DNA of 64,000 nucleotides from a virus: positions 1-64,000 of the IMG/VR virus record IMGVR_UViG_3300006056_000038; one strand, written 5' to 3'. The number at the start of each line of letters is the position of its first letter. Positions within the stretch are counted from its first letter, which is position 1. The notes beneath the pieces were generated by a model. It was not told the origin of the DNA. It did not search any database and saw only the letters and a list, made by a program, of their open reading frames with translations. Positions 4,410 through 51,869 of the stretch are shown piece by piece. The position numbers were made by a program, and so were the translations under genes.

Positions 4410-4423
4410 TGCTCTATTTATGG
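4405..4423 (+). promoter_or_regulatory. Palindromic CTATTTATGG motif (GAAATAG tg CTCTATTTATGG), 14 nt upstream of the ATG at 4438
   Basis: Inverted repeat AAATAG/CTATTT overlapping the TAG stop of the upstream gene. Confidence 0.5.
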
Positions 4424-4437
4424 GGACAATTTCTCCC

Positions 4438-5028
4438 ATGGATAACACCCTGAACGACCAGCGCCGCGAACAACTCATTGAACGCGCCCTCCAGTTGCAC
4501 GAACAACAAAAGGACCTCGAACAGGAGTTTTCCCCAGAGGAATTGCAGGAACTTTGGAGCGGCCTGAAGCACCTCGCCTCACGCGGAGCTGAAGCTTTAG
4601 GGGGAGCCATGCAAAGGGTCGGAAACAATGTGGCGAACAAGATAGATTCGGCCGCCAATGCCGTCGGGAACGCCGTATACGACAACACCATCGGGGTCGC
4701 CAAGAATGCCGCATCGGCCGTCAAAGGAGCCGTAGGAAATGCAGCAACTGCCACCAAACAAGCTGCTCAAGGGGTTCAGAACAAAGTGGTGGACACCTAC
4801 CGTCAAGGCGAGATCAATGGCATCGTACAGCGGATCCATGACCTGAACAACAAGTACAAGGAACTCACCGGGAAGAGCTTCGTACGCCAATTCAGCGCCG
4901 CCTCCGCTCCCACTCCGAACGCCCAGAAACGCGCAGCCTCGCAGTCTGCGACCCAAGCCAAGATGGCAATGGCGGAATGTCAGCGCATGCAGAAGCTCGC
5001 AGGCTTGATTACCGAGTCGGAGGATTGA
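4438..5028 (+). CDS. Hypothetical protein
   Basis: 196-aa ORF starting MDNTLNDQRREQLIE; Ala/Gly/Asn-rich middle. Track ORF 4330-5028 trimmed to the ATG after the motif. Confidence 0.45.
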   Translation: MDNTLNDQRREQLIERALQLHEQQKDLEQEFSPEELQELWSGLKHLASRGAEALGGAMQRVGNNVANKIDSAANAVGNAVYDNTIGVAKNAASAVKGAVGNAATATKQAAQGVQNKVVDTYRQGEINGIVQRIHDLNNKYKELTGKSFVRQFSAASAPTPNAQKRAASQSATQAKMAMAECQRMQKLAGLITESED

Positions 5029-7606: not shown

Positions 7607-7665
7607 TGTACCTACAAGTATTGCTGTTTATAAGTACAAATATATGAAATATTACTTAATAATAG

Positions 7666-7700
7666 AAAAGGCGTCTGACATCAGACGCCTTTTCTATTTA
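7666..7700. terminator. Bidirectional intrinsic terminator downstream of the sheath gene
   Basis: Perfect 13-bp stem AAAAGGCGTCTGA/TCAGACGCCTTTT with a 2-nt loop, flanked by a T-run on both strands (TTTTCTATTT on plus; TTTTCTATTATT on minus). Confidence 0.7.
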
Positions 7701-7712
7701 ATTGACTGGTTA

Positions 7713-10121
7713 TCAGAACTCTTCGAAGTTCGCGCCAGTGGGCAGGATTTGGTATGAGATGTCAATGAATTCTGCCACTCTTGTCGGCTTGATCTGGATC
7801 TTACCGATCAACATGTTCCGGTCGATCGTATCGGCGGTGTTGTTGCTCGCATCCATCGTTACCTTGAAGCCCACCAGACCTCTTTGGTTCTGGATCTGGA
7901 GCAACAGCGGCTCGACCTTTGCAAGGAACTGATCGCGCAGGGTCTGGTCGTTCTGTTCGAACACCAAGGTGATAGCGGCTGCGGACACCAAGCGCTCGAT
8001 GGTCAAGAGCAATCTGCGAACGTTGATACGGTCCAGAGCGCTCTCCTTCACCTGCAAGGTCTTCTGACCCCAGATCAACACACCGTTCTGGGTGCTGTCC
8101 ATGATCGGATTGATACGTCCGGCATACAACACGTCACGTTGAGTCTTGGACAGGCGCACATCGGCGCGGATCACGTTGCTCGGCATTTCACCACGGTTGG
8201 TACCAGCAACACCGTTCCAGCTCTTGTACTTGTTGTCGGTGTAAGCGATGGCGCGGGCCACGGCGAAGCTCGGTGGCAGATAGATCTGACGGCTACTGCT
8301 GACGTCCGATACTTGCACCCAAGGCCAGTAAGTGGCGCCGTAGGTGGTGTCGATACCGGTGAGATCAAGCGCTTCCACGGCCTCGTCAGGAGTTCCCTTG
8401 GTCTGACCAACGGTCAGGCGTGGGGAGTCGATGACGTAGAACAGATCGGCGCGTTCCTCGACCATTTCCAAGGCATACTTCACCAGTTCTTCGTTGTTCT
8501 GGTAATCGATACCCGATGTGCTCAGGACGTTCACGTCCACGCTGGCATCGCTGGCGAAGCAGTCGATCGCATCCTTGTAGGCCTGCACGTTCGACAGTTC
8601 ACCTTCAGCGAATTCTTCGTATGCATTGTCGTACTTCTTGTACTTGTCCCATCCATCGAAACCACCGTAAGGCACAACGGTGAACTTGAGCTTCGCGCGG
8701 TCCAGAGCACCTGCGGAGTTGGTGTAAGCCGTCAAGGAATTCTTGTTGCCGGATGCGAATTCAGTAGGCAACACGGTGTTCTCCATGTGGAAACCGAGCG
8801 TGGTGGTCTTACCGGTGGTGATGGCGCCTTGGAATTGGAACAGGTCATGCTCCACGTTCTGAGCGGCGTTGCGCACACCCACGGCGGAAGAGGTCAGCGC
8901 GGTGTAGCCCAGCTCGGAAACGCCCAAGTAGGTCTTTGGCACAGAGTCCCCCGAGAAGTATGTGGTCTTGTAATAGATGTTCGGACGGATCGTCGCGGTG
9001 TCAGCCCCCACGGAAGTCGTGGTGGAACGAAGCTCGTAACCACGGAAACCGGCAGGAACGGTATCGACAGGGAAACTGTCGGCCATTTCGATCTCGATGA
9101 AGTTTGACTTGCGCACGTACGGCTCATCACCAACGGTACCGATCATGCGGGCGATGAAGCGCGAGTTGTCGACATCCAATGAGAGACGATTGTGGCGCTC
9201 AACGATCGTGAAGGACGTGGCGTCGCTACTATCGTAGTAACGTACAACGATGTCGAACAACTTGTTGTTGAGGTCGATGTTGGCGATGGAGATCTTGACC
9301 TCCCTGTTGGAGGCGTCACCATCGCTGCGGGTGTGGACACGGAACAGGTTCTTCACCGCTCCGCCGATCACGCGCGATACGATCCAAGGCGTCACCGCAT
9401 TGGTGTATCCTGTAGCGTAGTTGGCAAAGTCAGGATTGGTGTCCGGTACGTAGATGAGCGAGGCATTGATGCCGACGATCTCACCACGAGCGGAGGCTTC
9501 TCTCACGAAGTGTGGGAAGATACTCTCGACATACAGGTTAGTGGTATCGGGAATGATCTTCGGGCTCTTGCCGATGGCCTTCGCCAAGTAGTCCGTACGG
9601 GTCTCATCCAACGAAACGCTGAGCGTATTGGCGCTCATCAGGCCGGTGGTACCGCACAGGACGAATGACGAAAGGGCCGAACCTGTGACCGACTGCCAGT
9701 TGCCGAGGACCACATCGGTGGAAGCGCTGAAATACGGAACACCCGAGGCGTCCTTCTTTGAGCGAATGACGGCGAGGGTGGTACCGGACTTCGAACCGCC
9801 CCCTGTGGTACCCGTGAGATTCGCCACCAACAGCCATGCGGGCGAGTTGGTGAAACCCACCTTACCGAGGACCCGGCTGACGAACAACTCGCTCGACTGG
9901 GTCAGGAAGGCATCGGTGGTGTAAGTAGCCGGGAACTCGTAGTTCGTCCCACCGAAACGCAGTACGTTCTCATCTGCGGTGGAGATCTTGATGGCCTCAA
10001 AGGCCGGACCCTTGGGGAATTTACCAACGACCGCGAGCTTGGTGATACCAATTCGCGAGGCGAAGGCGGTGAAGTCCTGTTCGGTTGTGTACACACCGGG
10101 GGAGACGAATACTGTTGCCAT
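7713..10121 (-). CDS. gp18: Tail sheath protein, T4 gp18-like
   Basis: 802 aa. The C-terminal region LDRINVRRLLLTIERL...ADTIDRNMLIGKIQIKPTRVAEFIDISYQILPTGANFEEF aligns with T4 gp18 FDRINVRRLFNMLKTNIG...PSVIDRNEFVATFYIQPARSINYITLNFVATATGADFDEL. Confidence 0.8.
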   Translation of the reverse strand: MATVFVSPGVYTTEQDFTAFASRIGITKLAVVGKFPKGPAFEAIKISTADENVLRFGGTNYEFPATYTTDAFLTQSSELFVSRVLGKVGFTNSPAWLLVANLTGTTGGGSKSGTTLAVIRSKKDASGVPYFSASTDVVLGNWQSVTGSALSSFVLCGTTGLMSANTLSVSLDETRTDYLAKAIGKSPKIIPDTTNLYVESIFPHFVREASARGEIVGINASLIYVPDTNPDFANYATGYTNAVTPWIVSRVIGGAVKNLFRVHTRSDGDASNREVKISIANIDLNNKLFDIVVRYYDSSDATSFTIVERHNRLSLDVDNSRFIARMIGTVGDEPYVRKSNFIEIEMADSFPVDTVPAGFRGYELRSTTTSVGADTATIRPNIYYKTTYFSGDSVPKTYLGVSELGYTALTSSAVGVRNAAQNVEHDLFQFQGAITTGKTTTLGFHMENTVLPTEFASGNKNSLTAYTNSAGALDRAKLKFTVVPYGGFDGWDKYKKYDNAYEEFAEGELSNVQAYKDAIDCFASDASVDVNVLSTSGIDYQNNEELVKYALEMVEERADLFYVIDSPRLTVGQTKGTPDEAVEALDLTGIDTTYGATYWPWVQVSDVSSSRQIYLPPSFAVARAIAYTDNKYKSWNGVAGTNRGEMPSNVIRADVRLSKTQRDVLYAGRINPIMDSTQNGVLIWGQKTLQVKESALDRINVRRLLLTIERLVSAAAITLVFEQNDQTLRDQFLAKVEPLLLQIQNQRGLVGFKVTMDASNNTADTIDRNMLIGKIQIKPTRVAEFIDISYQILPTGANFEEF

Positions 10122-14377: not shown

Positions 14378-14623
14378 ATGCAAGAACAAACAATAGGCGA
14401 ACAGAGAGTGCGTACGGCGTTCAATCCGAGCTTGGAGGGCATCGTCGACCAGATCAAGCAGAAGTCGGCAGAGTTGATCAACATGTGCGAAAGTTTGAAA
14501 GAGCCGTATTCCGGGGTCCCAAGCGAAAAGAACCGTCTTTGTGCCATTGCGCAAACGGAATATGAATCGGCGTGCATGTGGGCGGTCAAGGCGGCAACAA
14601 CTCAATTACCGCCAAAGTCATAA
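14378..14623 (+). CDS. Hypothetical small protein
   Basis: 81-aa ORF, charged and helical. Confidence 0.3.
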   Translation: MQEQTIGEQRVRTAFNPSLEGIVDQIKQKSAELINMCESLKEPYSGVPSEKNRLCAIAQTEYESACMWAVKAATTQLPPKS

Positions 14624-14933: not shown

Positions 14934-15452
14934 TCAAAGATCGCTCCCCGGCATTTCCCTTCCCGGGTTCTTCACGACCTTCATGGTCACTTGAGGCGCC
15001 GTCCTGTCGTGGGTCCCGTCGATGTTCGCGACATATCCGGCATCATGCGCCATGGCTTGGGCGTGGATGATGAAATCACGGTCCACCAAGATCGTGAACT
15101 TCGTGTTTCCGAGCGCGCCCTTGAAGTGGACCTTGTCGCCCAATGCGTCGGCGAACATGTTCTCGGCCGCCGACAACGGTCCGGGCTTTTGGTAATGGGC
15201 CAAGAAATCGTACATCACGGTTTCCTCGTCCCCGCTCAGCGGTTCGTTGAATCGCTTCTCGTAGGCCGCCAAGGCGTAACGATAAACGGCCATCTTGTCG
15301 CTTCCATGTTCCAGCGAGAACTGATAGGTCCCCGCATCCTGCTGGGCGAACAAAATGAGCCCGTGCGCCTGAGGCGTCAATGCGCCGGTCGGGAATCGCA
15401 TGTTGCCGAGCTCTTCCGAGATGACGGTACGAATAAGAGAACGGACATCCAT
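14934..15452 (-). CDS. CTS-family protein (putative packaged/internal protein); paralogue of 16444-16956
   Basis: N-terminus MDVRSLIRTVISEE. The C-terminal part (EETVMYDFLAHYQK...) is similar to 16444-16956 (EEAVFYDFAAHYDK...). Confidence 0.5.
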   Translation of the reverse strand: MDVRSLIRTVISEELGNMRFPTGALTPQAHGLILFAQQDAGTYQFSLEHGSDKMAVYRYALAAYEKRFNEPLSGDEETVMYDFLAHYQKPGPLSAAENMFADALGDKVHFKGALGNTKFTILVDRDFIIHAQAMAHDAGYVANIDGTHDRTAPQVTMKVVKNPGREMPGSDL

Positions 15453-15456
15453 TGGT

Positions 15457-15479
15457 CATAAATAGCTCTCTATTTATGG
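15457..15479. promoter_or_regulatory. Palindromic motif CATAAATAG-ctct-CTATTTATGG in the divergent region
   Basis: Serves the start of 15452(-) (about 4 nt) and 15496(+) (16 nt). Confidence 0.5.
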
Positions 15480-15495: not shown

Positions 15496-16443
15496 ATGAG
15501 CTTCATCATCACCGCCCGGAACCCCGCAGGAGAAATCTATTTCTATCCCGCCAGCGGACGATGGACTAAGGAATCCGACAAAGCCGCCATCTATGATGAC
15601 AAGGCGGAGGTGGACCGGGTCAGCGCGCAACTCCAACATCAATGGAAGGGTCTTACGTTGAAGGTCGAACCGTCCGCCAAGGTCCCGGGCGTGCAACTCA
15701 AACTTTCCGCCCTCTCCGAAGGTCTCCGCCAAGAGGTGAAAAAGCACATGAAGGAAGGGAAAGCGAAACTTTCCGCCATGCCCACAGACCTCAAAGAGCG
15801 CATCTTGAAGGAAACCGGCGAATGGGACAACAGCGATGAGGGTATGGTGGCTTGGAAAGAACAATTAAGGACCGACATCCTCGACATCATCGACGCCGTT
15901 GGGACCAGAATGGAGCTTGTCTCGGTCCATGGATTTGACGTCTATCAAGGACCGTACGCGTGGGTGAAGATCGACGGAAAGCCATACAAGGTATGGACGC
16001 AAGATGGGGACCTATGGATCGAGAAATACAAGGTCGACAACACGTCGATGCACGATAAGCTTCCCGGGTTCCAAGGGACGCCCGATGAGATCGCCCACAT
16101 GCTGTCGACCGATCACATGATGTCGAGCGAGTTCGGGCTCAATGAATTGCGTAATGAGATAAGCGGCGCAATAAAAGAGGGATTGGGAGGAACGATGCCA
16201 GCGGAGACGAAATCGCTATGGGCGGTCTTGGGGATCAAGGACATGAAGGAACTTCCTCAATCGCCAGCTCTACCGGAGATCATGCAAATGTTGCATGATA
16301 ACGGAATCACCGGACCCTTCAAGTACGGCAGGTTCGGTACCGACGGCTTGATTTACATAATGGGCAATGGCGGCAAGATCGGCATTGGATTGCATAATGG
16401 AAAACTCGAAGCCTTGTCCGCTGGTATGCTTTGGGACCTTTGA
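15496..16443 (+). CDS. Hypothetical protein carrying one copy of the KLSALSEGLRQEVKKHMKEGKAKLSAMP module
   Basis: 315 aa; the module is shared with 18069-19611. Confidence 0.5.
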   Translation: MSFIITARNPAGEIYFYPASGRWTKESDKAAIYDDKAEVDRVSAQLQHQWKGLTLKVEPSAKVPGVQLKLSALSEGLRQEVKKHMKEGKAKLSAMPTDLKERILKETGEWDNSDEGMVAWKEQLRTDILDIIDAVGTRMELVSVHGFDVYQGPYAWVKIDGKPYKVWTQDGDLWIEKYKVDNTSMHDKLPGFQGTPDEIAHMLSTDHMMSSEFGLNELRNEISGAIKEGLGGTMPAETKSLWAVLGIKDMKELPQSPALPEIMQMLHDNGITGPFKYGRFGTDGLIYIMGNGGKIGIGLHNGKLEALSAGMLWDL

Positions 16444-16956
16444 TCAGCGCATCTCCAGCTCCACCGGGGACACCACAAGGGCAATAGCGCCCAAGCTCTC
16501 CATGCGTTCGCCCGCGCGGCACCACCATCCGAATTGACGGACGCAATCCTTGGCTTGTTGCAATTGGTCGTCCTTCACCGAGACGATCATGAAGCGTTCG
16601 TAACAGGTCGGGTTGGCATCGACGCCGCCGTCGTAACCCCATAGGTCTCCGAATATCTTCTCGCCCATCCTCTTCCAATAACCATTGCCCTTGTCATAGT
16701 GGGCGGCGAAGTCATAAAAGACCGCTTCTTCGTCCTCTTGGTTGTCCGCAAGAGGGCTTCTTCCTTGATGGCGGAAGATGTCCAAGATCATGTCGAACAG
16801 CGCGCGTAGGTCGCCCTTCGTGTCGGACATCTTCTGGTCGCACGTGAACCTCGCGCCTTTGGCCCAATCGAGCATCTCGCGCGCCGTGCGCGTCTTTGCG
16901 CGGGAAGCCGTAAGGACAGCTTCCGTTATCATGGAGCGGATGAGGCGATGGAAGTT
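16444..16956 (-). CDS. CTS-family protein (start at the internal Met MNFHRLIRSMITE)
   Basis: Track ORF 16444-17133 overlaps the upstream gene. A Met at residue 60 gives an N-terminus matching the family and removes the overlap. Confidence 0.45.
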   Translation of the reverse strand, partial: NFHRLIRSMITEAVLTASRAKTRTAREMLDWAKGARFTCDQKMSDTKGDLRALFDMILDIFRHQGRSPLADNQEDEEAVFYDFAAHYDKGNGYWKRMGEKIFGDLWGYDGGVDANPTCYERFMIVSVKDDQLQQAKDCVRQFGWWCRAGERMESLGAIALVVSPVELEMR

Positions 16957-16970
16957 CATTCTAAGGCGGG

Positions 16971-18030
16971 TCAAGCCACGTAATGGGTCAACTCGAATGA
17001 GTTGTTCATGCCGTACACTTGAATATTGAGCGTCTTGTTCGCGGGCTTTCCATTGAAGGTCAGTCCAATGGCTGTCGAGAATGTATCCCCAACGGCAGGC
17101 TTTCCGGGTCCTGTCGTTATCTGGTTGAACCAATCCTGCTCGTCCACCACGAACCCCTTCTTCTCCGCCGTGTCCTTGGCGTGCTGAACGGCTGCGCTGA
17201 AGGTGGGAAAGTAGATGTTGGCGTTGTGCTTTGCGGAGTAAGCCTCTGCGTACACTTTTGTTGCCAAACCATCGAGGTCGGGTTTGCCCAATCTCGCCGG
17301 GTCATAGATGCCGCACTTGTAGCCTTCATGGTCATACACCGTGATCACCGATGTCCCATCGCGGACCTCGACCGCCCGGAACGTCAATGGTTCACCGTCT
17401 TCATCTTCATATCTCGACTTGTCCGTCAATAGTTGGGCCAGTTTGTTGGCATAATCGGTCGGAAGATGGATGGACAACTCCCGTACAGCATCCGAATTCT
17501 CCTCCATTACAGGCTCGGCCTCCAGTCCGTTATCGGCGTTCTGTTCGTCGCTCTTCAAGGCCGATACCATGCTCTTGGTCAACGCCCCATGGACCTCCGG
17601 CCCGAAGCGCTCCATAACACCGTTCCGCTCGCGCATGTCGAACAATTCGCCTCCGCACAGAAAGGCAAGGACGTTATCGAGCTTGAAGTTCCTGAAGCTT
17701 CCTTTGGCGGCCAAAGCCGCGTCCCCGGACTCCCTCTTGAGCTTGATGAAGACATTGGTGTCGTAGGCCGTCATCAGGTTGTTGTTCTGCAACTTGTTGG
17801 CTTGGGCGTCGGTCTTCTCGACGTCGCTGCGGATGTAAGCGGTCAAGCTCCTGCGGAAGGCCATGTGGCGCACCGTTCCGTCCTTCTTGACGAAGGCCAC
17901 GCTGATGGTGATGTTGCGCCTGTAGTAGTCCTTCACCTTCTGGGGCAGGTCGTCGAAGGTGAGGGCCGATCCTGAAATGCCTTCATAGGCTTCTTGGACC
18001 AATTTTCGGATGATGCGGCGGATATCCATG
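16971..18030 (-). CDS. CTS-family protein
   Basis: From MDIRRIIRKLVQEAYE (trimmed from the track start at 18059); 353 aa. Confidence 0.5.
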
Positions 18031-18034
18031 AACG

Positions 18035-18055
18035 TAAATAGAGCACTATTTATGT
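18035..18055. promoter_or_regulatory. Palindromic motif GTAAATAG-agca-CTATTTATG in the divergent region
   Basis: 3 nt upstream of the ATG of 18030(-) and 14 nt upstream of 18069(+). Confidence 0.5.
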
Positions 18056-18068
18056 TCAAACCTCATTC

Positions 18069-19611
18069 CATGTCGAAGCGCACCATCAAACTCTCCTCCC
18101 TCTCCGAGGGCCTCCGCAAAGAAGTCAAGAAGCACCTCAAGGAGGGAAGGACCAAGTTGGGTCAGATGCCTACTCGTCTGAGAAAACTTATTGAATCAGA
18201 GGCTTTCTATGGCACTGACTCTGACGAGTACAGACCGGATATGGAAAGTTCTTCCCGAGCCATCCCTAAGTTCACGCTGAAACCACGCAAAAATGCAGGC
18301 GAGTTTGAGGGGGAGAGCGGGCCATGGAAGGTGTGGATTTATACATATAACGATGGTAAGAAGTTCGGATGGACGCTACTCCATCGAGGCGAGTCTCTCG
18401 TTGGGGGAGAAGGGCATAGCTCGCTAAAGGCCGCTTGTAAGGCTGCGGAGAAAGAGGCGACACTAGATCGTTACCAGCACCTCAAGGAGGGCAGGACGAA
18501 GATGAGCCAGATGCCGCCGAAGCTGAAGCGGTTGATAGAGAATGAGACTGTAGGCAAAAAAGAATTCATTAAGAATTTAGGAAATGCTGGTGTTTATGGA
18601 AAGCCAGATATGTATTATGATCATTCTAAAAATATGGCTATAGCTGTTAATGTGTATGATAGGACAGGTCAAAAAACTGAAGATACATCGCCTCGATATC
18701 CATATCCATTACCTCAAGTCGCAGGCGTGACGCACCAAATCGATAAAGAAAACAGAGAGAAGTTTATGGATAAAAGATGCGAATGGTGTGTTTATAGCTC
18801 CGCACATTCCGAGTTAATTCACGAAATTGGAGTGCTACAAAACAACGGTCCATCAGCAACCAACGCTATGAATGCTAGAGCAAGCGATGATGAAGGTGGA
18901 TATTTTGAAGAACAAAAAACCATCAACCTCTCATCCCTCTCCGAGGGTCTCCGCAAGGAAGTCAAGAAGCACCTCAAGGAGGGCAGGACGAAGATGTCCA
19001 TGCTGCCATCTAAGTTGGCAAACAAGATCTTGATTGAGATGGAACATGACAGTTCAGGAAACCCCATTGCTCCTTGGGATAGAAAAGGACCCAAATCGCC
19101 TCATGGAAGTGATTTGCCGTATGTCCCTCATTCGCGCATCAACGCAGGAACCTATGATATAGATGGCGAATTTAGTAGCAGCGACGATATTGGCGATGAT
19201 GACAATTTCAATGTCAATGTCGATGATACTGAACTACTGAGCGCAATGGAGGATGCAAAAATGCAAAGCGAAAACGGATATGTCGTCCATGTGAACAAGT
19301 CACCAAAAGGCGACTACGAATTGAGCGACTGGTATGACGACGAATCGACTGTTGCAAGCTATGAAAATGGAAGAAAGCTCAACGAAAACAAACGTGCCAG
19401 CATGAAAAACAAGCAGATCAAACTCTCCTCCCTCTCCGAGGGCCTACGCAAGGAAGTGAAGAAGCACCTCAAGGAGGGCAGGACCAAATTGGGACAGATG
19501 CCGCCGAAGTTGGCAAACGAGATCTTGAGCGAAATGAATGACATGGGGTCACAATTTGATAGCTCAGGAAATCCCATTCTTCCTTGGGGAAGCAATGGTT
19601 CTAGCAAATAG
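18069..19611 (+). CDS. Modular repeat protein with four or more copies of KLSSLSEGLRKEVKKHLKEGRTK[LM][GS]QMP.KL
   Basis: Start MSKRTIKLSSL after the motif. Protein-level repeats at about residues 1, 140, 300 and 470. The underlying DNA repeats (about 18087, 18474, 18912, 19410) are roughly 85% identical. A second repeat, SSGNPI[AL]PW, is also present. Confidence 0.55.
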
Positions 19612-19713: not shown

Positions 19714-20013
19714 TCATACGCGCTGGCTCAGCGCGCCACGGATTATCGAGCGGAGGAACCGCTCGTTCACCACAGGGGTTCCCATCCGCTTTTGAACGGC
19801 GGCATCGTATTGTTGCTTGATGTTGTCGGAGGACATCTCGTATTGTTCGTCAGTCAATTTATGTCCACTCTCCGCCGTCTTCAACGCATACTGAAGTCGT
19901 ATGATAAAGGAACCTGCCCGTTCTGTACGACTCCAAAATGATCGATCGTACGAGGCGGCGTAATTCCATTGGCCATAAATATGGCCATATTTAGCTTTGA
20001 TGGACATTCGACG
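19714..20013 (-). CDS. Doubtful small ORF (would contain the 19973-19994 motif inside its coding sequence)
   Basis: Track ORF 19714-20073; low-complexity, W/Y-rich. Confidence 0.2.
   Translation of the reverse strand, partial: RRMSIKAKYGHIYGQWNYAASYDRSFWSRTERAGSFIIRLQYALKTAESGHKLTDEQYEMSSDNIKQQYDAAVQKRMGTPVVNERFLRSIIRGALSQRV
19973..19994. promoter_or_regulatory. Palindromic motif CCATAAATATGG-CCATATTTAG
   Basis: Perfect inverted repeat ending 5 nt before the ATG of 20000(+). Confidence 0.5.
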
Positions 20014-20632
20014 TATGATCAGGAACATCCTCTTGGAGGAAGCGTCCGGCATCGCCTTCGAAACGCAACACACGGCCAGCTATCACGGCCAGAGCAATTT
20101 CACGCTTCGTCTTCTGGCGAACGGAAGAGAGGTTGCGCATTTGGATTACACCATCTTTCAAGGCGAGACGCAGATCGCCATGGTGGAGGTCCCGCGTCCG
20201 GAGGACAAGCGAAAGGGATACGGCCGCATGCTGGTGGACCGCTTGGCGCAGGAGCGCGGCGGATACGATAAGATCCAATGGGGCTCCATGACCCCCGATG
20301 GCGCGGCGCTGCAACAGGCCATGGACCGCGAAAAGAACTTCGACCGGGAGGAGCACGAGAACCTGCATTATCGGCAAGAGGACATGATCGCTCTCATCTC
20401 GAAGAAAGGCAAGAACGCGGCCGGGTTCTTTCGGGACACATGCGCAATAGGATACGAGGCGGCATGGCAGAAATGGGCCGCCAACATCAAGGATTCCCAC
20501 ATTGACGGGATCGATCAGAGCGACCTCAGCGACCTAGCCGAATGGACGCGTGGATCGGTCGAGAACCATCATCCCAAGGATTGGGAACCTCAGGATTGGG
20601 TGCAGCGGTTCGTGGCGGAGTTGAGGGCTTGA
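20000..20632 (+). CDS. GNAT-family N-acetyltransferase with CTS-like N-terminus
   Basis: N-terminus MDIRRMIRNILLEE. Motif-A-like segment QIAMVEVPRPEDKRKGYGRMLVDRLAQERG (R-x-x-G-x-G). Confidence 0.55.
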   Translation: MDIRRMIRNILLEEASGIAFETQHTASYHGQSNFTLRLLANGREVAHLDYTIFQGETQIAMVEVPRPEDKRKGYGRMLVDRLAQERGGYDKIQWGSMTPDGAALQQAMDREKNFDREEHENLHYRQEDMIALISKKGKNAAGFFRDTCAIGYEAAWQKWAANIKDSHIDGIDQSDLSDLAEWTRGSVENHHPKDWEPQDWVQRFVAELRA

Positions 20633-20683: not shown

Positions 20684-21604
20684 ATGGATATCAAGAAGTT
20701 GATCAAGAACATGATAGCAGAGGTAGCGGGCGTGCAATTGAACGTAAAACGCCTGTCCGAGATAATGGCGGACGTGACCATTGACCATATTATATCAACC
20801 GCCCAAAAGAGAAAGGACATATTGGACGGGGAACATTGGAATGTTCCATTTGGATATGAACCACCAGCCATGATATCAGGAGACACATGGATAAGGACGG
20901 TCGAAGTGTCGGTCGAATTCTGCAACTCACCAAGGGAAGAGCCGACAGGGTCATTCCAATCCAGCAAGACCAAGAAGCACAGCAAGCCGGAGTCCTCCTA
21001 TTCCATATCCATAGGACTTGTTGTTCATGTTCCAATAGCGGAATTGAAGAACGAAAGAACAGCACTGCGATCGATATTCGCCCACGAGCTCAACCACGCC
21101 TTCGTGTTCATCCACGACGTGAACAAAAAGTCGGCCGTCTTGAACGCCAAAAACAGGCGCATTGGCGCAGCCTACAGCGAGGACCCCGGAGTCCAATTGT
21201 TGAATAAGGCCATCTACCTCTCCAACCCCATGGAGATACAAGCAAGAATTCAAGACATCGGCGGTCTGGTGGACGACTTGATGAGCACCACCGCAGAGGA
21301 CGCTCTTTCTGAGCTTCTATTGTACCAGCCGATGCGAGAGTTGTCAGAACTGAACAACATGGACTTCAGAAAGATCGAGCGCACGCAGGCCGTTCAGGAC
21401 TTCGCGCGCAAAATGGGCGGAGATGACGTTATGCAATTCATTTCGGACCTCAACAGAAAGCGCAAGACATCGGCATTCCAAGCCTTGAAGAAAGTCTATC
21501 GCCTCGTCTCGGACCGATACAGCGTCAACGAGGAGTTCTGGATCGATGCCGAAGCGTATAGCATCATCCATGAGAGCGATTGGCCGCCGAGGGAACTCCT
21601 ATGA
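20684..21604 (+). CDS. HExxH zinc-metallopeptidase-like protein with CTS-like N-terminus
   Basis: N-terminus MDIKKLIKNMIAE. HExxH motif in IFAHELNHAFVFIHD. CATATTTATG motif (20671-20680) 3 nt upstream. Confidence 0.5.
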   Translation: MDIKKLIKNMIAEVAGVQLNVKRLSEIMADVTIDHIISTAQKRKDILDGEHWNVPFGYEPPAMISGDTWIRTVEVSVEFCNSPREEPTGSFQSSKTKKHSKPESSYSISIGLVVHVPIAELKNERTALRSIFAHELNHAFVFIHDVNKKSAVLNAKNRRIGAAYSEDPGVQLLNKAIYLSNPMEIQARIQDIGGLVDDLMSTTAEDALSELLLYQPMRELSELNNMDFRKIERTQAVQDFARKMGGDDVMQFISDLNRKRKTSAFQALKKVYRLVSDRYSVNEEFWIDAEAYSIIHESDWPPRELL

Positions 21605-23008
21605 GGACTTTTCCTTCTTTTCGCCAAGCAATTTGTCCAGCACGGCCCTGCCCTCATCCGTTGAGGCCATGCCCGTCAGCATACCGGCGATGTCGACGCC
21701 TCCGCCCGGATTGAACATCCCCATAATGCCCTTCACGCTGCCGGGGATGTTCCCGCCGCTCCCCACGATCTTGATATCGGCTTTCTCCAGCGCTACCGCC
21801 ATTGCCTTTCCTACAACTTCGTTGGCCTCTACCTGACGGTTGTCGATCAAGTATTTCTGGTATTCTGGAGATCCAGCGATCTTCTCGGCCAACTTGATCT
21901 GAGCGTCCACTGGAGCCATCAGCTTCGCCTTCTCGGCCTCTCCCTCCGCCTTGCCTTTAGCGGCAATGCCCTCGGCGTTCTTGAGCGAAGCGAACAGCAT
22001 GCCTTCGGCCAACGTCTGAGTGGCGGCCTTTTCGCCGTCCGCCTTTACCGTCATCACCTCCTTCTCTTGTTGGGCGTTCACCACCGCAACGTTCTTGTTT
22101 TGTTCCGCCAACACTTCAGCGGCCTTCTTGCTGATCTCCGCCTTGCGGACGGTGTTGATGGATAGCACCTCCATCTCCTTTACCGTCGTGATGGCCGTCT
22201 GTTCCTGCACGGACTGTGTGGCCTTTTCCTTTGCGATGCCTATCTCCCGCACCCGCTCAGCCTCACGAATACCAACAGCTTGTAATGCCTGTTGGTCTTG
22301 AATGTCGATCTCGCGTTTGGCCGATATCTCCGCAAGCTTTGCGATACGACCGTGATCGGCCACCTGAACGCGGCTTTCTTGATCGATGCGCGCCTGTTCC
22401 TTGGCCATGATGTTATGGATGACGTTCGACTTCTGTTCCGTAGAATCCCGCAGGTCCATGAACTCGATCATCTTGACGGTCTGAACGCCCCACTCCTTGA
22501 TGTTGTCGTCTACTTCGTCGGTGAACTGCTTCCCCAAGGTGGAACGTTGATGCATGATCTCCTCCAATTGATTGGTAGCGAGGATCCGGCGGACGGCACC
22601 TTGCAACACGGAATGCAATTGCGTTTCCAATTCCCTGAAAGATGCCACCCGCTGCGCGGCGGTATCGGAATTCGCTATCCTGAAGAATGCGGATACATCC
22701 ACCACGAACGGAAGTCTGGCCGAATCGTAAGCTTCATAATTCGCAAGGCTGACCTGAAAGACACTTTCAGGCATCTCAACTTTGGTCACACCAATAATGG
22801 GGAACCACGTAGGCCATTCATAATAGACGTTCCCGCTATCCCTTCCTCGTCCATACGAGGTGGTCTTTTTGCCCGTCTGCACGATGTGGACCGTGTTGGT
22901 CGGGACCACGCGGCGCAAAAAGAGAGCGGAAAAGAGCCCGATGGCGAGGGCGATAACGCCGATCACAATGAGGATGGTCGGCCAATTGGAGAATAGGTTC
23001 TGTATCAT
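21599..23008 (-). CDS. SPFH/band-7 (flotillin/prohibitin-like) membrane protein
   Basis: N-terminal TM helix (WPTILIVIGVIALAIGLFSALFL), then SPFH-type core and a long Ala/Glu/Lys coiled-coil tail (AEISKKAAEVLAEQNKNVAVVNAQQEKE...). Confidence 0.65.
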   Translation of the reverse strand: MIQNLFSNWPTILIVIGVIALAIGLFSALFLRRVVPTNTVHIVQTGKKTTSYGRGRDSGNVYYEWPTWFPIIGVTKVEMPESVFQVSLANYEAYDSARLPFVVDVSAFFRIANSDTAAQRVASFRELETQLHSVLQGAVRRILATNQLEEIMHQRSTLGKQFTDEVDDNIKEWGVQTVKMIEFMDLRDSTEQKSNVIHNIMAKEQARIDQESRVQVADHGRIAKLAEISAKREIDIQDQQALQAVGIREAERVREIGIAKEKATQSVQEQTAITTVKEMEVLSINTVRKAEISKKAAEVLAEQNKNVAVVNAQQEKEVMTVKADGEKAATQTLAEGMLFASLKNAEGIAAKGKAEGEAEKAKLMAPVDAQIKLAEKIAGSPEYQKYLIDNRQVEANEVVGKAMAVALEKADIKIVGSGGNIPGSVKGIMGMFNPGGGVDIAGMLTGMASTDEGRAVLDKLLGEKKEKSS

Positions 23009-23081: not shown

Positions 23082-25880
23082 TCATTGGTTGGAAGTTTGT
23101 TTATTGCATGTGATCAATGCCTGTCTTTTTTCCTGACCTCCACTACGCATGTAATGCGACTTCTTCACACCATAGTACTCTGTTGAAACAATGGTGAACC
23201 CTGCGTTCAACAGGCAATGAGAAAGTTCAACGACATACTTCTCGTTCATATCCAGAACCATCTTTCCGCTCGTCTTCAGATAGGCATGACAGTTTACAAG
23301 GACGGGGAGTAATTCCTTTGCGAACCATGTCTGGGTGTCCAAACCTTTTGGAGTTTCGCTATACGAATACAGTTCATCGTAATAGAAAGGAGGAGATGTG
23401 AAGATGAAATCCACCCTCCCCTTCAAACTCTCTTGGTACACCTTGGAGTCACCGAATGTCACCGTGCAATTCTTCAGGTCCTTTTCCTTGATGATGCGTT
23501 CATATCCATCCTTAAGATGGAGGTTTATGTCATTGCCGACGTAATGTGCTCCTCGTTCGCAGCAAGCGAGCATGCGGCTGCCCCAGCCAGCATATGGGTC
23601 ATACACCACATCGTCGTATTGCACATTGTTCTGATATACGCCCCTTGCTTGCTCGATAGGGAATACCCCCACGTTGTACACGGTTCTCACCGCAATACCG
23701 CGATACAACTGCATGATGGAGACATCGAACAGCTCCTTCTTCTTGTTCAGCCCCAGACGGTACTTCACCACTTCCCTTAAAACACCCTTGTCTTGAAATA
23801 TGTCAAATAACCCCTTCTCTCTCTTATGAGAACGATAATAGGAATCGGCGAACACGCCTTTCAACCACGATACTGTAGTGGGTCTCTTCGATAGATCGAT
23901 ACAATCCTTTATGTACTTCTCCGGAGGGTAGAACGTGGTCCAGAATTCCAGAAGAGTGTCAACTAGATCTTCATTCTTCAGCATCTCATCTCTGCCTCTT
24001 TCGCAATACTCCTTGCTGAATATTATGTCATGCTCTTTAAGGCGCAACAGCGGATGGTCTTGAAGATTGATTTCGTATCTATCCAAGAATGTGATCAAGT
24101 CATTCTCTGAATTGAATTTTTGTGGCGCATGCTGCTTCACGTCTTTCTCACGAATGCGGTAAAGGCGATAGCCGCTTTCTTTTGCTACTTCGTCTTTCTT
24201 GACGTCACGGACGAAATTCAATATCTGCTTGAAATGATATCCTCCCTTGCTGACATATCCGTGCCAGTAATCCCCATCCAATTCTATCAATATCTTCCTG
24301 TCTTCCAAGCACCAATCGAACATGAACTTACCAACAGATTTCTGCTTCCGTATTCCTTGAAGTTCGCAAGTGGCTTCACGGAATGCTCGTTCCAGTTTGT
24401 TCTCCTTATATGTCTGCTTGGTTTTGTTGTACAATATGGCGGTATCTGACATTTTCTTCGATGTCGTACTGTTGAATATGCCCTTAGCTCCATACTTCTC
24501 TTTGTACATCGTATGGTCCATACCATGGACTGCCAAATGTGTTTGGGTTATGGCTCTCAATTTCTCTCCACAAACACCACACTCTACCCAATTTTGAGGA
24601 TTGACCTGCATGTCGATTGCGTTCGCCTTTTTCTGTTCGATACGCTCAAGCTCTGTTTTGAATAGCAGGCTTTCTTCTTCATGAATTTTCACGTGTTCCT
24701 CTACTGTAAGGTTATGCACACTTACAATGTGTGTGGTATACCATCCGCTGGCATTTGAGAGATCATTGGTGGTCCAATCGCAGTACGCGCATTTCCTCTT
24801 TTCTTGTACAACATTATCTACTTCATTGAAATCGAAATGTTCGTAGTACCACGGCTTTCCTGTGGTCTTGAAAAACTCGCGCTTCTTTGTGTTGGTCTCA
24901 TGCTCCATATCGGGCATTATCCTCTCAAGGTGCCTCGTTATGATGCCGGATGCATTCAAGTAATCAGGAAAACGTTCTCCGGTCTGCCTACAAATCGCCA
25001 CATAATTCTTCCCTTCTTCGAAGAAGGATGGCATCCCCTTCTTGTCGAAACGGATGTTCTGCTTGGCTTTTTCTGACCTCAAACGTTTGTACTCCTCAAG
25101 GCGCTCATGTTTGTTGGGCCAATCCTCCAACGGAGGGAATGGAACGAACATGTTCCACTCCATAAGCACGCGATGAATGAGACTTGAGCTCATACCGACC
25201 GCTTCTTCCAGCGCGCGCATGGAAAGGCCGTCCTCCAAATATCCTTTCTTGATGACCGTGAACTGCGCTTCGGTGATCTCCGCGCGTGGCTGATACTGAT
25301 ATGTGCGCGCCTCCTTTGGCTGCGGTTGGATGAATTCGAAGTGGTCCACGAACCATGGTCGCCCTTGTTCGGTTTGGAACTTCTTCTTTTTGAAGTCGCT
25401 CTGGTCCGCCATGGGGACCCTCAGTTTTCTCAAATGTGCCGTAAGGGCCCCGGATGCGTTACGGAAGTCATCAAACTCCTTTCCTGTGGCCTTACATACG
25501 GCCACATACTCGACGCCCGGTTTGAAGAACGGTGCGGGCACGGTAATGAGAGGGTTACCGTGATTCCATTTCCTGTCGCGCTCTTCATCGGAACCATCGG
25601 CGCCAACATATAACCCAACCTCTTGAAGTGTTTTCGTACACCACATGAGGCTTCGCCCCATTTCGGTCGCCATCCGACTCAATGGTAATTTGTCTTTCAG
25701 ATGTAAACGGGCCAGATTCAGGATGTCCTCCGATGTGGCTTCTACTTTTTTGATGCTTCCTCCCATGCAACAAAGGTAGTACATCAATTCATATATTCCA
25801 AATTTGCCGAATGACTTTACTCCATCTAAAGGAATTATGACGATCTTTCTTGAAATATAACAAAAGAGAAAGGCGACCAT
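23082..25880 (-). CDS. Fusion protein: triplicated Cys-motif DNA-binding repeats + Vsr/DUF559-like endonuclease domain + C-terminal DNA (N6-adenine/N4-cytosine-type) methyltransferase
   Basis: Three repeats of C..TG..F.D..NASG..T.HL (VCKATGKEFDDFRNASGALTAHL, ICRQTGERFPDYLNASGIITRHL, CAYCDWTTNDLSNASGWYTTHI). RKILIELDGDYWHGY matches the Vsr-like PD-(D/E)xK core. The MTase segment has motif I VVYDPYAGWGSR and motif IV FIFTSPPFYYDEL. Confidence 0.65.
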   Translation of the reverse strand: MVAFLFCYISRKIVIIPLDGVKSFGKFGIYELMYYLCCMGGSIKKVEATSEDILNLARLHLKDKLPLSRMATEMGRSLMWCTKTLQEVGLYVGADGSDEERDRKWNHGNPLITVPAPFFKPGVEYVAVCKATGKEFDDFRNASGALTAHLRKLRVPMADQSDFKKKKFQTEQGRPWFVDHFEFIQPQPKEARTYQYQPRAEITEAQFTVIKKGYLEDGLSMRALEEAVGMSSSLIHRVLMEWNMFVPFPPLEDWPNKHERLEEYKRLRSEKAKQNIRFDKKGMPSFFEEGKNYVAICRQTGERFPDYLNASGIITRHLERIMPDMEHETNTKKREFFKTTGKPWYYEHFDFNEVDNVVQEKRKCAYCDWTTNDLSNASGWYTTHIVSVHNLTVEEHVKIHEEESLLFKTELERIEQKKANAIDMQVNPQNWVECGVCGEKLRAITQTHLAVHGMDHTMYKEKYGAKGIFNSTTSKKMSDTAILYNKTKQTYKENKLERAFREATCELQGIRKQKSVGKFMFDWCLEDRKILIELDGDYWHGYVSKGGYHFKQILNFVRDVKKDEVAKESGYRLYRIREKDVKQHAPQKFNSENDLITFLDRYEINLQDHPLLRLKEHDIIFSKEYCERGRDEMLKNEDLVDTLLEFWTTFYPPEKYIKDCIDLSKRPTTVSWLKGVFADSYYRSHKREKGLFDIFQDKGVLREVVKYRLGLNKKKELFDVSIMQLYRGIAVRTVYNVGVFPIEQARGVYQNNVQYDDVVYDPYAGWGSRMLACCERGAHYVGNDINLHLKDGYERIIKEKDLKNCTVTFGDSKVYQESLKGRVDFIFTSPPFYYDELYSYSETPKGLDTQTWFAKELLPVLVNCHAYLKTSGKMVLDMNEKYVVELSHCLLNAGFTIVSTEYYGVKKSHYMRSGGQEKRQALITCNKQTSNQ

Positions 25881-25924: not shown

Positions 25925-27565
25925 TTAGTAGGTGTTGATGTTGTCGATGTACACTACACCGTAGAAGCGGTTGTTGACCATCTTCTTAGCATACCTTGTC
26001 ATGATCCCCTTACGCGGAGTAAAGTCATTCGGATCATAGATCGTCTGCGTCAATTGCAGCGGGATGTATGGGGCGTAGATGTAACCAGCCTCCAAGAAGG
26101 TGTTACCCTTGTGACCCAACAGCACGATCTGCGCAGGCAGGTACGGATCCTTGTAGACCACGTAACGGCTACCCAACTGACCGATCTTCTCGATACCGAG
26201 GTTGTACTTCTCCGACTCAGGGGAAGCACTGCCATCGACGTGGAAGTATTCCAGATCATCGAAGATCGCACCGGCCTCAGCCGAGCACACGATCCAGTTC
26301 GCACCACCTCTCAAGGTTGCCTTGTGGATCTGGGCGCTGAGCTCGTTCACACGGGTGATCAGCGTTTGGTTCCAGTCCTTTTGGGTACCGAAGAAGTTCG
26401 CGTTGTTCTGGAGACCTTGGTAGTCCCAACGAGCACGGAAAGGTGCGCCGTTGATGAGGTCCGTCAGGATCTCGCGGTCGATCTCAGCAGCAACGTGCTC
26501 GGAGAGAAGAGCGGTCAGCTCAGCCTCGGCATCAATGCTGTGGTAGGCCTCAAGATCTTGGGCCAATTCAGGGGTCCAGTGAGCGCGGAGCTTACGGGTC
26601 ACGGTGTTCACGGTCACGCTGGAGAAGCGGATCGAGATCTCGGACATTTCACCCTTCGCTTCCAAGTCGTTGTAGACCTCGAATGCAGGAGTGACGGTCA
26701 GGGCGAACTGAGTACCGAAGTTGGTACCGTTGTTCAACATCGCGGAGTTGAAGTCCGAACCGTAAACGCTCGGTGGACGAAGGTCCAACACGATGTTCGA
26801 GGTGGAACCTTGGAACTGGTCGGTTCCCCATGCTTGCACGTTCGCGAACACAGGAACGCTTCCGCCAGCGGCAACGAGCAGGATGTTGCTCGATCCAGCG
26901 CTGTAGTAGATAGCGGTGGTCGAGGAGTACCTCAAGGAAGCAGAAGACTGCTGCTTGGAGGTGTCGAAGCCCGTGAGGGTGAAAGCACCCGGATCGTACA
27001 AACCATTGCTGAAGCTGTCAGCGGAGAAGGTCTTGGAAACGCCAAGAGCCGTTTCGCCCGTACCGAAGGACAGATCGAAACCACGGTTGTTGTAGAAACG
27101 CTCGTAGGCAGAGGTGTCCGCGAACACAGGGCCACCTTGACCGTTCGCGGTATTCTTGGGGTTCACCTTGTTCATGCGTGCGATTTCCTGAGCACGCGTG
27201 ATCGACGTGTCGAAGGTGTTGTCACTACCGTTGAACGATACACGCGCGTCCATGTAGAACAACAGACCGGTAGGGAGCGCCAAAGGCTGCACCGAAACCA
27301 GTTCATTGGCCAACAGACGCGAGAATACGCGACGAACGATAGGGAACGCCACCGTATCGAAACGTCCAGCGGACGCGTCGAGGGTTACCTCGTTCAGCAT
27401 CGAAGCAGCCTGCGACTCCAGCAACTGCGCGATGTTGGAACGCTTGGGTCCCTTCAGGCCTTTGAGCAGGCCAGACTCCTCCCAGTTCGCAACGATAGCG
27501 TTGCGCTGTTCTGCGAGGTTCTTCAAAGTGGTAAGGCCGACCTTACCGGTTCTGAGTAATTCCAT
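25925..27565 (-). CDS. gp23: Major capsid protein, T4 gp23-like
   Basis: 546 aa. RRVFSRLLANELVSVQPLALPTGLLFYMD aligns with T4 RRAIPNLIAFDICGVQPMNSPTGQVFALR. ELAQDLEAYHSIDAEAELTALLSEHVAAEIDREILTDLI aligns with ELAQDLRAVHGMDADAELSGILATEIMLEINREVVDWI. AGYIYAPYIPLQLT aligns with AGIYYAPYVALTPL. Confidence 0.85.
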   Translation of the reverse strand: MELLRTGKVGLTTLKNLAEQRNAIVANWEESGLLKGLKGPKRSNIAQLLESQAASMLNEVTLDASAGRFDTVAFPIVRRVFSRLLANELVSVQPLALPTGLLFYMDARVSFNGSDNTFDTSITRAQEIARMNKVNPKNTANGQGGPVFADTSAYERFYNNRGFDLSFGTGETALGVSKTFSADSFSNGLYDPGAFTLTGFDTSKQQSSASLRYSSTTAIYYSAGSSNILLVAAGGSVPVFANVQAWGTDQFQGSTSNIVLDLRPPSVYGSDFNSAMLNNGTNFGTQFALTVTPAFEVYNDLEAKGEMSEISIRFSSVTVNTVTRKLRAHWTPELAQDLEAYHSIDAEAELTALLSEHVAAEIDREILTDLINGAPFRARWDYQGLQNNANFFGTQKDWNQTLITRVNELSAQIHKATLRGGANWIVCSAEAGAIFDDLEYFHVDGSASPESEKYNLGIEKIGQLGSRYVVYKDPYLPAQIVLLGHKGNTFLEAGYIYAPYIPLQLTQTIYDPNDFTPRKGIMTRYAKKMVNNRFYGVVYIDNINTY

Positions 27566-45533: not shown

Positions 45534-46174
45534 TATATCCAAGACAAACCGACCTTCCATACCCGCAGCCTTGGGAGTTTGTTTATGAGAACTTCTTCAA
45601 AGACAAAAAAGATTTGTTTTATGTCGATGTTGGCGCGAATGACGGACTTTTGGTCTCAAATACAGCTTTTTTCGAACTTGACATGAACTGGATAGGCATA
45701 TGTATAGAGCCTCATCCTCTTGCATTTTCAAAGCTGGAGACCAATAGAAAGTGTGTAAAATACAACTGTTGCATTAGCGATGAATCAACCACCTTGGAGT
45801 ATAACAAGGTTTCTGGATATGCCGAAATGCTGAGCGGCATAAGATCCGTTCAGGACGATCAACACATGAGAAGGATAATGAGCGAAATACAAAAGCATGG
45901 TGGCACTCTTGAAGTGATCAATGTTGAGTCAAAGAGATTGGATGCCATCTTGAATGAAAACAACATACAACATGTCGACTACCTGTCGATAGACACAGAA
46001 GGCGCAGAAATGAAGGTGCTTTCAAGTTTGGACCTGACTGCTTTTGATATAAAAGTTATAAGTGCAGAGAATTCAGATACGAATGCAACTGTACGGGATT
46101 TCCTGAACTCAAAGGGGTATGACTTTATCACCAAAGTTTGTTCAGATGAAATCTTTGTAAAGCGAAATCCATGA
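45530..46174 (+). CDS. FkbM-family SAM-dependent methyltransferase
   Basis: [19 protein letters not shown]...IEPHP...[12 protein letters not shown] matches the FkbM domain pattern. First gene of the AT-rich island; its start overlaps the stop of the upstream gene (ATGA). Confidence 0.55.
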
Positions 46175-50027: not shown

Positions 50028-50037
50028 CTCAGTCACC

Positions 50038-50736: not shown

Positions 50737-50749
50737 AATACACTGAAGC

Positions 50750-51859: not shown

Positions 51860-51869
51860 CAAAAACAAA

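Follow-up and report, generated by a model that had tools for sequence, protein, structure and literature searches.

The internal head proteins of phage T4, and its protein Alt, carry propeptides of 10-20 residues, the capsid targeting sequences (CTSs), which gp21 removes by cleavage after (L/I)-x-E motifs; in Alt, cleavage occurs at ITE-6 and LTE-619 (PMC5694885, PMC9026906). Propeptides of this kind often contain several cleavage sites, and those of giant phages are longer and have several redundant sites (PMC5694885, PMC9026906). The T4 internal proteins themselves are hypervariable and only the CTS is conserved among them (PMC3012670). The subject of the present analysis is a repeated peptide element, called the unit here, which is encoded by two open reading frames (ORFs), 15496-16443 and 18070-19611, within positions 1 to 64,000 of the IMG/VR virus record IMGVR_UViG_3300006056_000038; this 64-kb stretch was analysed as a whole and is referred to as the window. 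Its gene content marks the window as the structural region of a distantly T4-like phage from an uncultured lineage, and a tail sheath, a Gp23-type major capsid protein and a head protease are all encoded in it.

Proteins with the unit form a family of small late proteins that vary greatly and are encoded between the neck and capsid genes. The reading that we favour, at about even odds (probability roughly 0.5), makes the unit a long and portable propeptide or linker for capsid targeting, which the prohead protease would excise, and ORF 18070-19611 a polyprotein of fused leaders and cargo domains; targeting, cleavage, packaging and ejection are the proposed steps.

Repeat copies in two open reading frames

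The repeats have been confirmed as real and far beyond chance. On recounting, a profile of the unit gave five matches in the window and no more, every one of them on the + strand. The 513-aa ORF 18070-19611 (+) is laid out, from its translation, unit profile matches and segment charges, as unit 1, cargo A, half-unit 2, cargo B, unit 3, cargo C, unit 4 and the truncated start of a second cargo C. An earlier, sequence-only reading of the window had counted four copies in this ORF; three of these are full and the fourth is a half copy. Unit 1 (18085-18207, +; full, hmmsearch i-E 3e-23) forms the N-terminal leader, MSKRT|IKLSSLSEGLRKEVKKHLKEGRTKLGQMPTRLRKLIESE, and units 3 (18922-19044, +; full, i-E 2.9e-21; the reference copy, DNA repeat D1) and 4 (19417-19539, +; full, i-E 1e-22) are internal, the latter with the relic-like start 'MKNKQ' upstream. 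Unit 2 (QHLKEGRTKMSQMPPKLKRLIENE, 18475-18549, +; DNA repeat family D2) matches profile positions 16-40 (i-E 1.6e-9); it begins QHLKEGRTK and is without the LSSLSEGLRKEV half, so that the L-S-E motif, ascribed earlier to every unit, is invariant in the full units and missing from this partial copy. One more copy, LKLSALSEGLRQEVKKHMKEGKAKLSAMPTDLKERILKE, is found at 15697-15819 (+; i-E 1e-21), as predicted, in the 315-aa ORF 15496-16443 (+), where it lies between a 68-aa N-terminal domain and a C-terminal domain; P0012 and P0021 are orthologues of this single-unit protein. No recognised Pfam domain was found in the unit ORFs of the window.

Three in-frame ATG codons, at 18010, 18052 and 18070, are available to the + strand ORF that ends at 19611. 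The start given earlier, 18069, is out of frame and off by one. Gene callers chose 18070 in three independent samples, and this is the first ATG that lies wholly 3' of a promoter-like motif (18046-18053) described below. The resulting 513-aa protein was found identical on six contigs from at least three samples.

At the DNA level the copies are 63-83% identical over a 120-nt repeat. Over a 75-nt core, the three full copies of ORF 18070-19611 are 89-93% identical to one another and 72-73% identical to the copy in ORF 15496-16443; for the copies within ORF 18070-19611 the ~85% estimated previously was fair. Synonymous divergence (pS) is 0.29-0.35 and nonsynonymous divergence (pN) 0-0.035 within ORF 18070-19611, giving dN/dS of 0-0.1, and pS reaches ~0.73 between its copies and that of ORF 15496-16443. 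These many synonymous differences, together with the low dN/dS, indicate that the unit peptide is under purifying selection, and with divergence that is mostly synonymous an assembly artefact and a very recent origin of the repeats are both ruled out.

The second repeated element proposed at the outset, SSGNPI(A/L)PW, is also present in two copies. SSGNPIAPW (19051-19077, +) begins cargo domain C, and SSGNPILPW (19561-19587, +) opens a second copy, which is cut off by the stop codon at the end of the ORF; the element also follows units in relatives P0002 and P0003. The C-terminal part of cargo domain C matches phrog_14154 (E 6.8e-5), and the domain weakly resembles the C-terminus of Agrobacterium phage Atu_ph07 gp044 (tblastn, 50% identity over 42 aa, E 0.01), a protein annotated as 'virion structural protein', which provides a weak link of this cargo to the virion.

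Conservation, charge and predicted structure of the unit

An alignment of 21 units places the length of the conserved unit at ~41-45 aa rather than the ~30 aa first described, since conservation runs on through 'MPxxLKKxI(x)xE'. Residues L11, E13, R16, V19, E25, G26, K29 and P34 are invariant and E44 is nearly so. E13, E25 and E44 each stand two residues after an aliphatic residue, in the contexts L-S-E|G, (L/M/I)-K-E|G and (I/L/V)-x-E; across all 21 units the sequence around E25 reads (L/M/I/F/V)-K/N-E25 followed by the invariant G26, and (I/L/V/M)-x-E occurs near positions 42-44 in nearly all of them, as a sequence match only. Within the 513-aa protein, 11 of the 13 [LI]xE motifs fall inside units.

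The unit is basic, as had been claimed, with a net charge of +4 to +6 (pI 9.9-10.4), and the segments between units are neutral to acidic. AlphaFold2 predicts a helix-loop-helix composed of a helix (residues 13-24), a loop (EGRTK) and a second helix (35-47); the pLDDT is 86-96 when the full-length protein is modelled and 76 for an isolated unit. Structure prediction was one of the checks that had been suggested. Outside the units the mean pLDDT is 57, and cargo was therefore not used for fold searches.

Distribution of the unit in sequence databases

The unit is rare. An exhaustive profile search of 1.84 billion representative proteins found it in 43 clusters, and a word-indexed search, run as well, gave 14 relatives. 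About half of the 43 clusters consist of small variable proteins with unrelated cargo in which the unit starts at residue 1-4. It also occurs after an N-terminal domain, as in ORF 15496-16443, in tandem, and at the C-terminus (P0047). Five to six residues upstream of internal copies a sequence of the form 'MKNKx' is often kept, and these sequences look like relic start codons of fused cassettes.

Near-identical DNA and tblastn searches with the 513-aa protein against 50,697 phage records gave no match, a scan of the cultured phages in INPHARED found no unit, and the unit profile had no relatives among IMG/VR viral contigs and GTDB species genomes. Searches of the Protein Data Bank (PDB) by sequence and by fold returned nothing significant; profile matches to the designed repeat protein 8vd6 and to ApoA-I (E ~0.008) were rejected as compositional. 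A full-text search of the literature for peptide strings of the unit found no paper.

Neighbouring leaders, cargo exchange and gene fusion

Genes that bear a 13-residue CTS-like leader, M(D/N)(I/V)Rx(L/I)IRxx(I/L)xE, are interspersed among the unit genes on both strands, which bears out the interleaving with CTS-family genes noted earlier. The stretch at 14.9-21.6 kb contains six of these genes, and a seventh is found at 3399. All 15 of the leaders compared have Glu at residue 13; residue 11 is L or I in 14 of them and V in one. Being short and N-terminal, they fit the definition of a CTS at the level of sequence. Near the capsid genes of the distant relatives Microcystis phage Mel-JY01 and uncultured LR756508 leaders of this type are essentially absent.

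On the - strand, genes of this kind lie at 14934-15452 (MDVRSLIRTVISE|E) and 16444-16959 (MNFHRLIRSMITE|A, 171 aa), followed by a 352-aa product encoded at 16971-18029 (MDIRRIIRKLVQE|A). A truncated remnant at 19862-19969 (-; MELRRLVRSIILES...) runs into a stop after 36 aa; three independent samples share this exact sequence, and it is therefore a genuine truncation or frameshift rather than a sequencing error, and a related reading frame continues nearby in another frame (ORF 19714-20073, -). Two further genes lie on the + strand, one at 20000-20632 (MDIRRMIRNILLE|E), whose cargo has a weak GNAT/FR47-like acetyltransferase motif (E 0.003), and one at 20684-21604 (MDIKKLIKNMIAE|V), whose cargo contains HELNH, a metalloprotease-like HExxH motif. 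The gene content of this cluster differs between samples, and in L010 HSP20 replaces some of the genes.

A third leader or linker, type-C, has the form (K/R)xx(L/M)K(L/I)AG(L/I)xxE and is found in L001 (8805-9641; MNERKRNMKLAGIKES), P0007, P0011, P0013 and P0014. It occurs at N-termini and, once in the window, at a C-terminus (RMQKLAGLITESED, 4984-5025, at the end of ORF 4330-5028). The three leader types are interchangeable: the cargo domains of 16971-18029 recur in L001 8805-9638 behind the type-C leader (BLASTP E 9e-40 and 3e-24) and in the unit-bearing P0014 (BLASTP E 2e-18), so that the same cargo is found behind a CTS-like leader, a type-C leader and a unit, all of which end in (L/I/V)-x-E.

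Genes have also been fused and un-fused at leader boundaries. An ART-PolyVal-like gene stands alone in L002 (11595-12527) with the leader MNIRPLIRSVILES, and its counterpart in L001 is joined in frame to the end of a half-unit, as ...HLKEGRTK|MNIRSLIRRIILES. The ART-PolyVal scores in Pfam are 27.8 bits for P0005 (E 5e-6) and 30.8 bits for L002 11595-12527 (E 6e-7), against a cut-off of 31.2. Leader-bearing genes of relatives carry ART-PolyVal-like and DUF3990-like domains.

Position 30 of the unit, directly after KEGRTK, is Met (ATG) or Leu, and the Leu codon is nearly always TTG (e.g. 18172-18174, 18499-18501, 19009-19011 and 19504-19506). TTG accounts for 10 of 13 Leu codons at this position, compared with 30% genome-wide, and in 12 of 18 copies the codons for K-E-G read AAGGAGG, 11 nt before the ATG or TTG. 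In P0005 the Met at position 30 is the start Met of a fused CTS-like leader. The codon may be a relic start codon, and because it is Met or TTG-encoded Leu and coincides with the leader start in P0005, a possible origin of the unit is a short CTS-type leader that was extended N-terminally past its start codon. Internal translation starts within the unit were considered and are unlikely, since no Shine-Dalgarno sequence is found at the gene starts of this phage and AAG, GAG and TTG are common codons.

Capsid, scaffold and protease genes

The capsid, scaffold-like and protease genes lie together on the - strand. The Gp23-family major capsid protein (25925-27565; phrog_138, E 1e-65; PF07068 in orthologues) has its best relatives, at 30-43% identity, in uncultured huge phages, Rhodothermus phage RM378 and Microcystis phage Mel-JY01. 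Its N-terminal region contains conserved L-L-E|S and L-N-E|V motifs ~17-26 residues before the conserved core, a position that corresponds to the site of propeptide removal in T4 gp23. An acidic scaffold-like protein is encoded between the protease and capsid genes (27594-28931), the position of gp22 in T4, and this position is kept in L001, L002 and L006. The prohead protease (28988-30811) belongs to the T4 gp21 family, Peptidase_S77 (PF03420, E 8.6e-26; phrog_207). Its gene is interrupted by a LAGLIDADG intein (PF14890, PF14528), which is inserted directly after a conserved 'GGELDHPD' motif (C...HWTGN|S); the orthologues in L001 (18317-18928), L002 (18147-18860) and L006 are intein-free and 203-237 aa long. 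Four related metagenomic contigs, L001, L002 and L006 among the relatives, keep the gene order gp13-like neck, variable unit-gene cluster, Gp23, acidic scaffold-like protein and Peptidase_S77.

Several other genes of the region are of note in their own right. An 81-aa protein encoded at 14378-14623 (+) contains an Acb2/Tad1 hairpin domain (PF24729, E 4.7e-11) and is probably an anti-CBASS/Thoeris nucleotide sponge; the gene is kept beside the leader-gene cluster in L001 (2238-2516) and L006 (15409-15651). A 469-aa SPFH/Band_7 (flotillin-like) protein with an N-terminal membrane segment is encoded at 21599-23008 (-), on the stretch that separates the leader-gene cluster from the capsid region; L006 has a conserved counterpart (7216-8604), and such a protein is unusual for a phage head module. 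The capsid gene is adjoined by a gene for a 932-aa mosaic protein (23082-25880, -) with DNA methyltransferase, DUF559 (endonuclease-like) and ROS/MucR-like pieces, the orthologues of which are 592-750 aa long, and the sheath gene by a 613-aa HNH/homing-endonuclease-like gene (5765-7606, -); mobile nucleases seem to be common in this structural region. Further along the window, a block of genes on the same strand (46000-54000) has a G+C content of 0.38-0.41, compared with ~0.52 elsewhere, and may have been acquired horizontally.

A shared promoter-like motif

The motif CTATTTAT, (C/A)TATTTA(T/G), occurs 19 times, nearly always just 5' of a start codon at a distance of 4-45 nt, and is shared by unit genes, CTS-like genes, the protease, the sheath gene and other structural genes. 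About 16 sites are single, e.g. 30840(-), 13888(-), 10624(-) and 37015(-)/37039(+). At three divergent gene pairs of the cluster the motif forms part of a palindrome, TAAATAG-N4-6-CTATTTA, with three matches in the window against 0 expected, which puts CTATTTAT upstream of both genes of a pair. The three copies, each with a spacing of N4, lie at 15459-15476 (between the starts 15452(-) and 15496(+)), 18035-18052 (18029(-) and 18070(+)) and 19976-19993 (19969(-) and 20000(+)). Before the CTS-like genes the motif ends only 4-5 nt from the ATG, and their mRNAs may therefore be leaderless.

The palindrome was considered as the T4 late promoter TATAAATA and rejected, as the single sites all read CTATTTAT on the coding strand, in the opposite orientation. 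The coding-strand reading of the motif is the complement of TATAAATA, and because of this reversed orientation the motif is called promoter-like only.

Proposed role of the unit and its alternatives

As a capsid-targeting propeptide, the unit would dock its cargo on the assembling prohead core, probably on an acidic scaffold, as the T4 CTS does; its basic charge (+4 to +6) might suit docking on the very acidic scaffold-like protein of 27594-28931, a point that is speculative. The gp21-family protease would then cut after the three conserved Glu residues (L-S-E|G, (L/M/I)-K-E|G and (I/L/V)-x-E|), the unit would be broken into peptides of ~12-19 residues that leave the head, and the cargo domains would remain inside and be ejected with the DNA. 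ORF 18070-19611 would have been made by in-frame fusion of leader-plus-cargo cassettes and would yield three or four small head-internal proteins. To our knowledge, such a polyprotein arrangement has not been described for T4-type phages. Processing of a polyprotein had been raised in the sequence-only reading, and the idea is favoured by the Peptidase_S77 gene, the aliphatic-x-E contexts of E13, E25 and E44, the leader position of the unit, the 13-residue leaders of neighbouring genes with their invariant (L/I/V)-x-E, and the exchange of cargo. The purifying selection on the unit, the gathering of 11 of 13 [LI]xE motifs within units, the conserved gene order, the fusion and un-fusion of genes, the promoter-like motif held in common with structural genes, the predicted helix-loop-helix, the T4 precedent and the weak virion link of cargo domain C count in its favour as well. 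It is perhaps weakened by the frequency of (L/I)-x-E in the cargo itself, where the motif is not depleted (98 observed against 86 ± 8.5 expected).

Several further points weigh against a propeptide. In this uncultured lineage cleavage, packaging and even expression are predictions. The length and the strong conservation of the unit go well beyond what a tag for cleavage or targeting requires (the CTS of T4 has 10 residues), and the fold predicted for it would also suit a functional domain that is retained. Amphipathic helices often have an aliphatic residue at the second position ahead of a Glu, so that the motif match alone is weak, and three of the four conserved Glu residues of the unit fit aliphatic-x-E, E18 being the one that does not. 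The unit is also found after an N-terminal domain (ORF 15496-16443) and at a C-terminus (P0047); we know of no T4 CTS in an internal or C-terminal position, though Alt does lose a C-terminal propeptide. Finally, hhalign of the C-terminal half of the unit against the CTS-like leaders gave a probability of 3.6%, at which homology is not demonstrable. Our estimate stays near one half because cleavage and packaging are inferred, the unit is long and conserved, [LI]xE is not avoided in cargo, and homology of the C-terminal half of the unit with the short leaders cannot be demonstrated.

A bolder form of the proposal, which is held tentatively and considered somewhat improbable, is that the unit could be a self-contained 41-residue helix-loop-helix 'load-and-self-destruct' tag that would dock cargo in the T4-type prohead and would then be shredded at three built-in protease sites, allowing position-independent 'cargo-train' polyproteins. 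Together with the two other leader classes it would serve a hypervariable arsenal of injected effectors (ART-like, GNAT-like and HExxH-like).

Among the alternatives, a retained domain survives best and is nevertheless unlikely. The unit would then be a basic helix-loop-helix that binds packaged DNA or the inner surface of the capsid or scaffold, and the multi-unit proteins would be multivalent tethers or charge neutralisers rather than polyproteins. The contrast in charge between unit and cargo, the confidently predicted fold, the strong conservation of all 41 residues and not just the x-E sites, and the presence of (L/I)-x-E in cargo are all consistent with this, and T4 internal proteins are embedded in packaged DNA (PMC3012670). 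The unit nevertheless matches no SAP, HeH, Rho_N or other Pfam DNA-binding family; searches of Pfam with single units at E <= 10 gave sub-threshold Apolipoprotein and other compositional matches only, with neither SAP nor Rho_N, and neither family nor fold searches lend support to the DNA- or membrane-binding repeat domain offered earlier. Three invariant or near-invariant acidic residues would be unusual in a DNA-binding motif, and the leader position, the relic starts and the interchange with 13-residue leaders point to a propeptide.

It is less probable still that these are non-virion proteins, in which the unit would act as an adaptor for an intracellular target (chaperone, ribosome or RNA polymerase) on cytoplasmic host-takeover or anti-defence proteins encoded beside the head genes. 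The region does hold a non-structural counter-defence gene, the Acb2/Tad1-like 14378-14623, some cargo looks enzyme-like (ART-PolyVal just under threshold, GNAT-like and HExxH), and the content of the cluster varies by sample, including the HSP20 of L010. Against this stand the neck-to-capsid position conserved in four related contigs, the promoter-like motif held in common with the protease, sheath and other structural genes, and the protease-type motif at the ends of the leaders; moreover, enzymes of this kind (the Alt ADP-ribosyltransferase and IPI*) are packaged in the head in T4.

T4-type proheads assemble at the inner membrane, and an apolipoprotein-like amphipathic helix pair could bind membrane or lipid, for example as an inner-membrane anchor or near the SPFH/flotillin-like protein whose gene (21599-23008) adjoins the cluster. 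This is very improbable: the matches to ApoA-I are weak (Pfam PF01442, E 0.002-0.05; PDB ApoA-I chains, E ~0.008), PF01442 scores 13.9-20.8 bits against a gathering cut-off of 90, the predicted helices of the unit are 10-13 residues long against the 22-mers of apolipoproteins, and the similarity is compositional.

Equally hard to credit is a role of the repeat as DNA with a functionless peptide, either as a recombination cassette for module shuffling, like the promoter-stem-loop cassettes of T4-type phages, or as a source of internal translation starts, since shuffling and fusion exactly at unit boundaries and the AAGGAGG and TTG counts are outweighed by dN/dS of 0-0.1 with many synonymous differences, which is selection on the peptide, by gene starts that have no Shine-Dalgarno sequence and by the shared descent of the copies, which makes the codon counts non-independent, and such a role could in any case hold alongside the propeptide rather than in its place.

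If the unit is indeed a capsid-targeting propeptide, capsid targeting in T4-type phages would not be limited to a 10-residue N-terminal tag, and a longer, position-independent module could load several unrelated proteins from one ORF. The arsenal of proteins injected by uncultured phages could then be read from sequence, as shared leaders ending in aliphatic-x-Glu near a Peptidase_S77 gene, and the unit would be a candidate for use as a tag with which to package foreign proteins into phage heads. The fusions and fissions of genes at leader boundaries documented here represent a mechanism of rapid turnover in a region rich in counter-defence. Should the domain instead be retained, the unit would still be a rare, strongly constrained and uncharacterised module of 41 residues.

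Comparison with known systems

The coat-binding domain of the P22 scaffolding protein is a small basic helix-loop-helix that is not known to be cleaved or to serve as a cargo tag. The unit is likewise small, basic and predicted to form a helix-loop-helix, and its charge could let it dock inside a procapsid; in sequence and fold the two differ, no match between them being found in the PDB sequence and fold searches. Polyvalent proteins, found in phages and conjugative elements, are multi-domain effectors that are delivered with DNA and include the ART-PolyVal domain. The present proteins may resemble them in combining several unrelated small domains, among them an ART-PolyVal-like domain in relatives, in one ORF of a phage structural region. 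They differ in that their domains are split by a conserved, repeated linker with protease-type motifs, in being much smaller, and in an ART match that falls just below the Pfam threshold.

The unit appears to be functionally closest to the T4 CTS with its gp21 processing and, next, to the inner-head propeptides of phiKZ, 201phi2-1 and SPN3US. The inner-body and ejection proteins of the latter phages are likewise head-internal families with conserved N-terminal propeptides longer than the T4 CTS, which have multiple redundant post-Glu sites and are processed by a diverged gp21 homologue (PMC5694885, PMC9026906). In contrast to the unit, these propeptides have S/A/G-x-E motifs and are cut by a protease of the S80 family; tandem internal repeats of them between unrelated cargo domains are not known, and they have no sequence relationship to the unit.

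With the CTSs of T4 (IPI, IPII, IPIII and Alt) the unit shares the arrangement of a conserved leader on hypervariable, unrelated small cargo proteins, a leader that ends in aliphatic-x-Glu, and several cleavage motifs in one propeptide; a gp21-family Peptidase_S77 and a Gp23 capsid protein are encoded by this phage too, and relatives have an ADP-ribosyltransferase-like cargo domain, as in Alt. The differences are that the unit has 41-45 residues rather than 10-20, is strongly basic and predicted to fold as a helix-loop-helix, occurs internally, in repeats and even C-terminally to give polyprotein-like ORFs, has no sequence similarity to MKTYQEFIAE, and coexists with two other leader classes in one gene cluster, its function being putative. 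Being neither short nor strictly N-terminal, and sharing no sequence with it, the unit is not a member of the T4 CTS family, but it plausibly works like one: an uncharacterised, rare and strongly constrained module, for which the concept proposed here extends established biology by inference.

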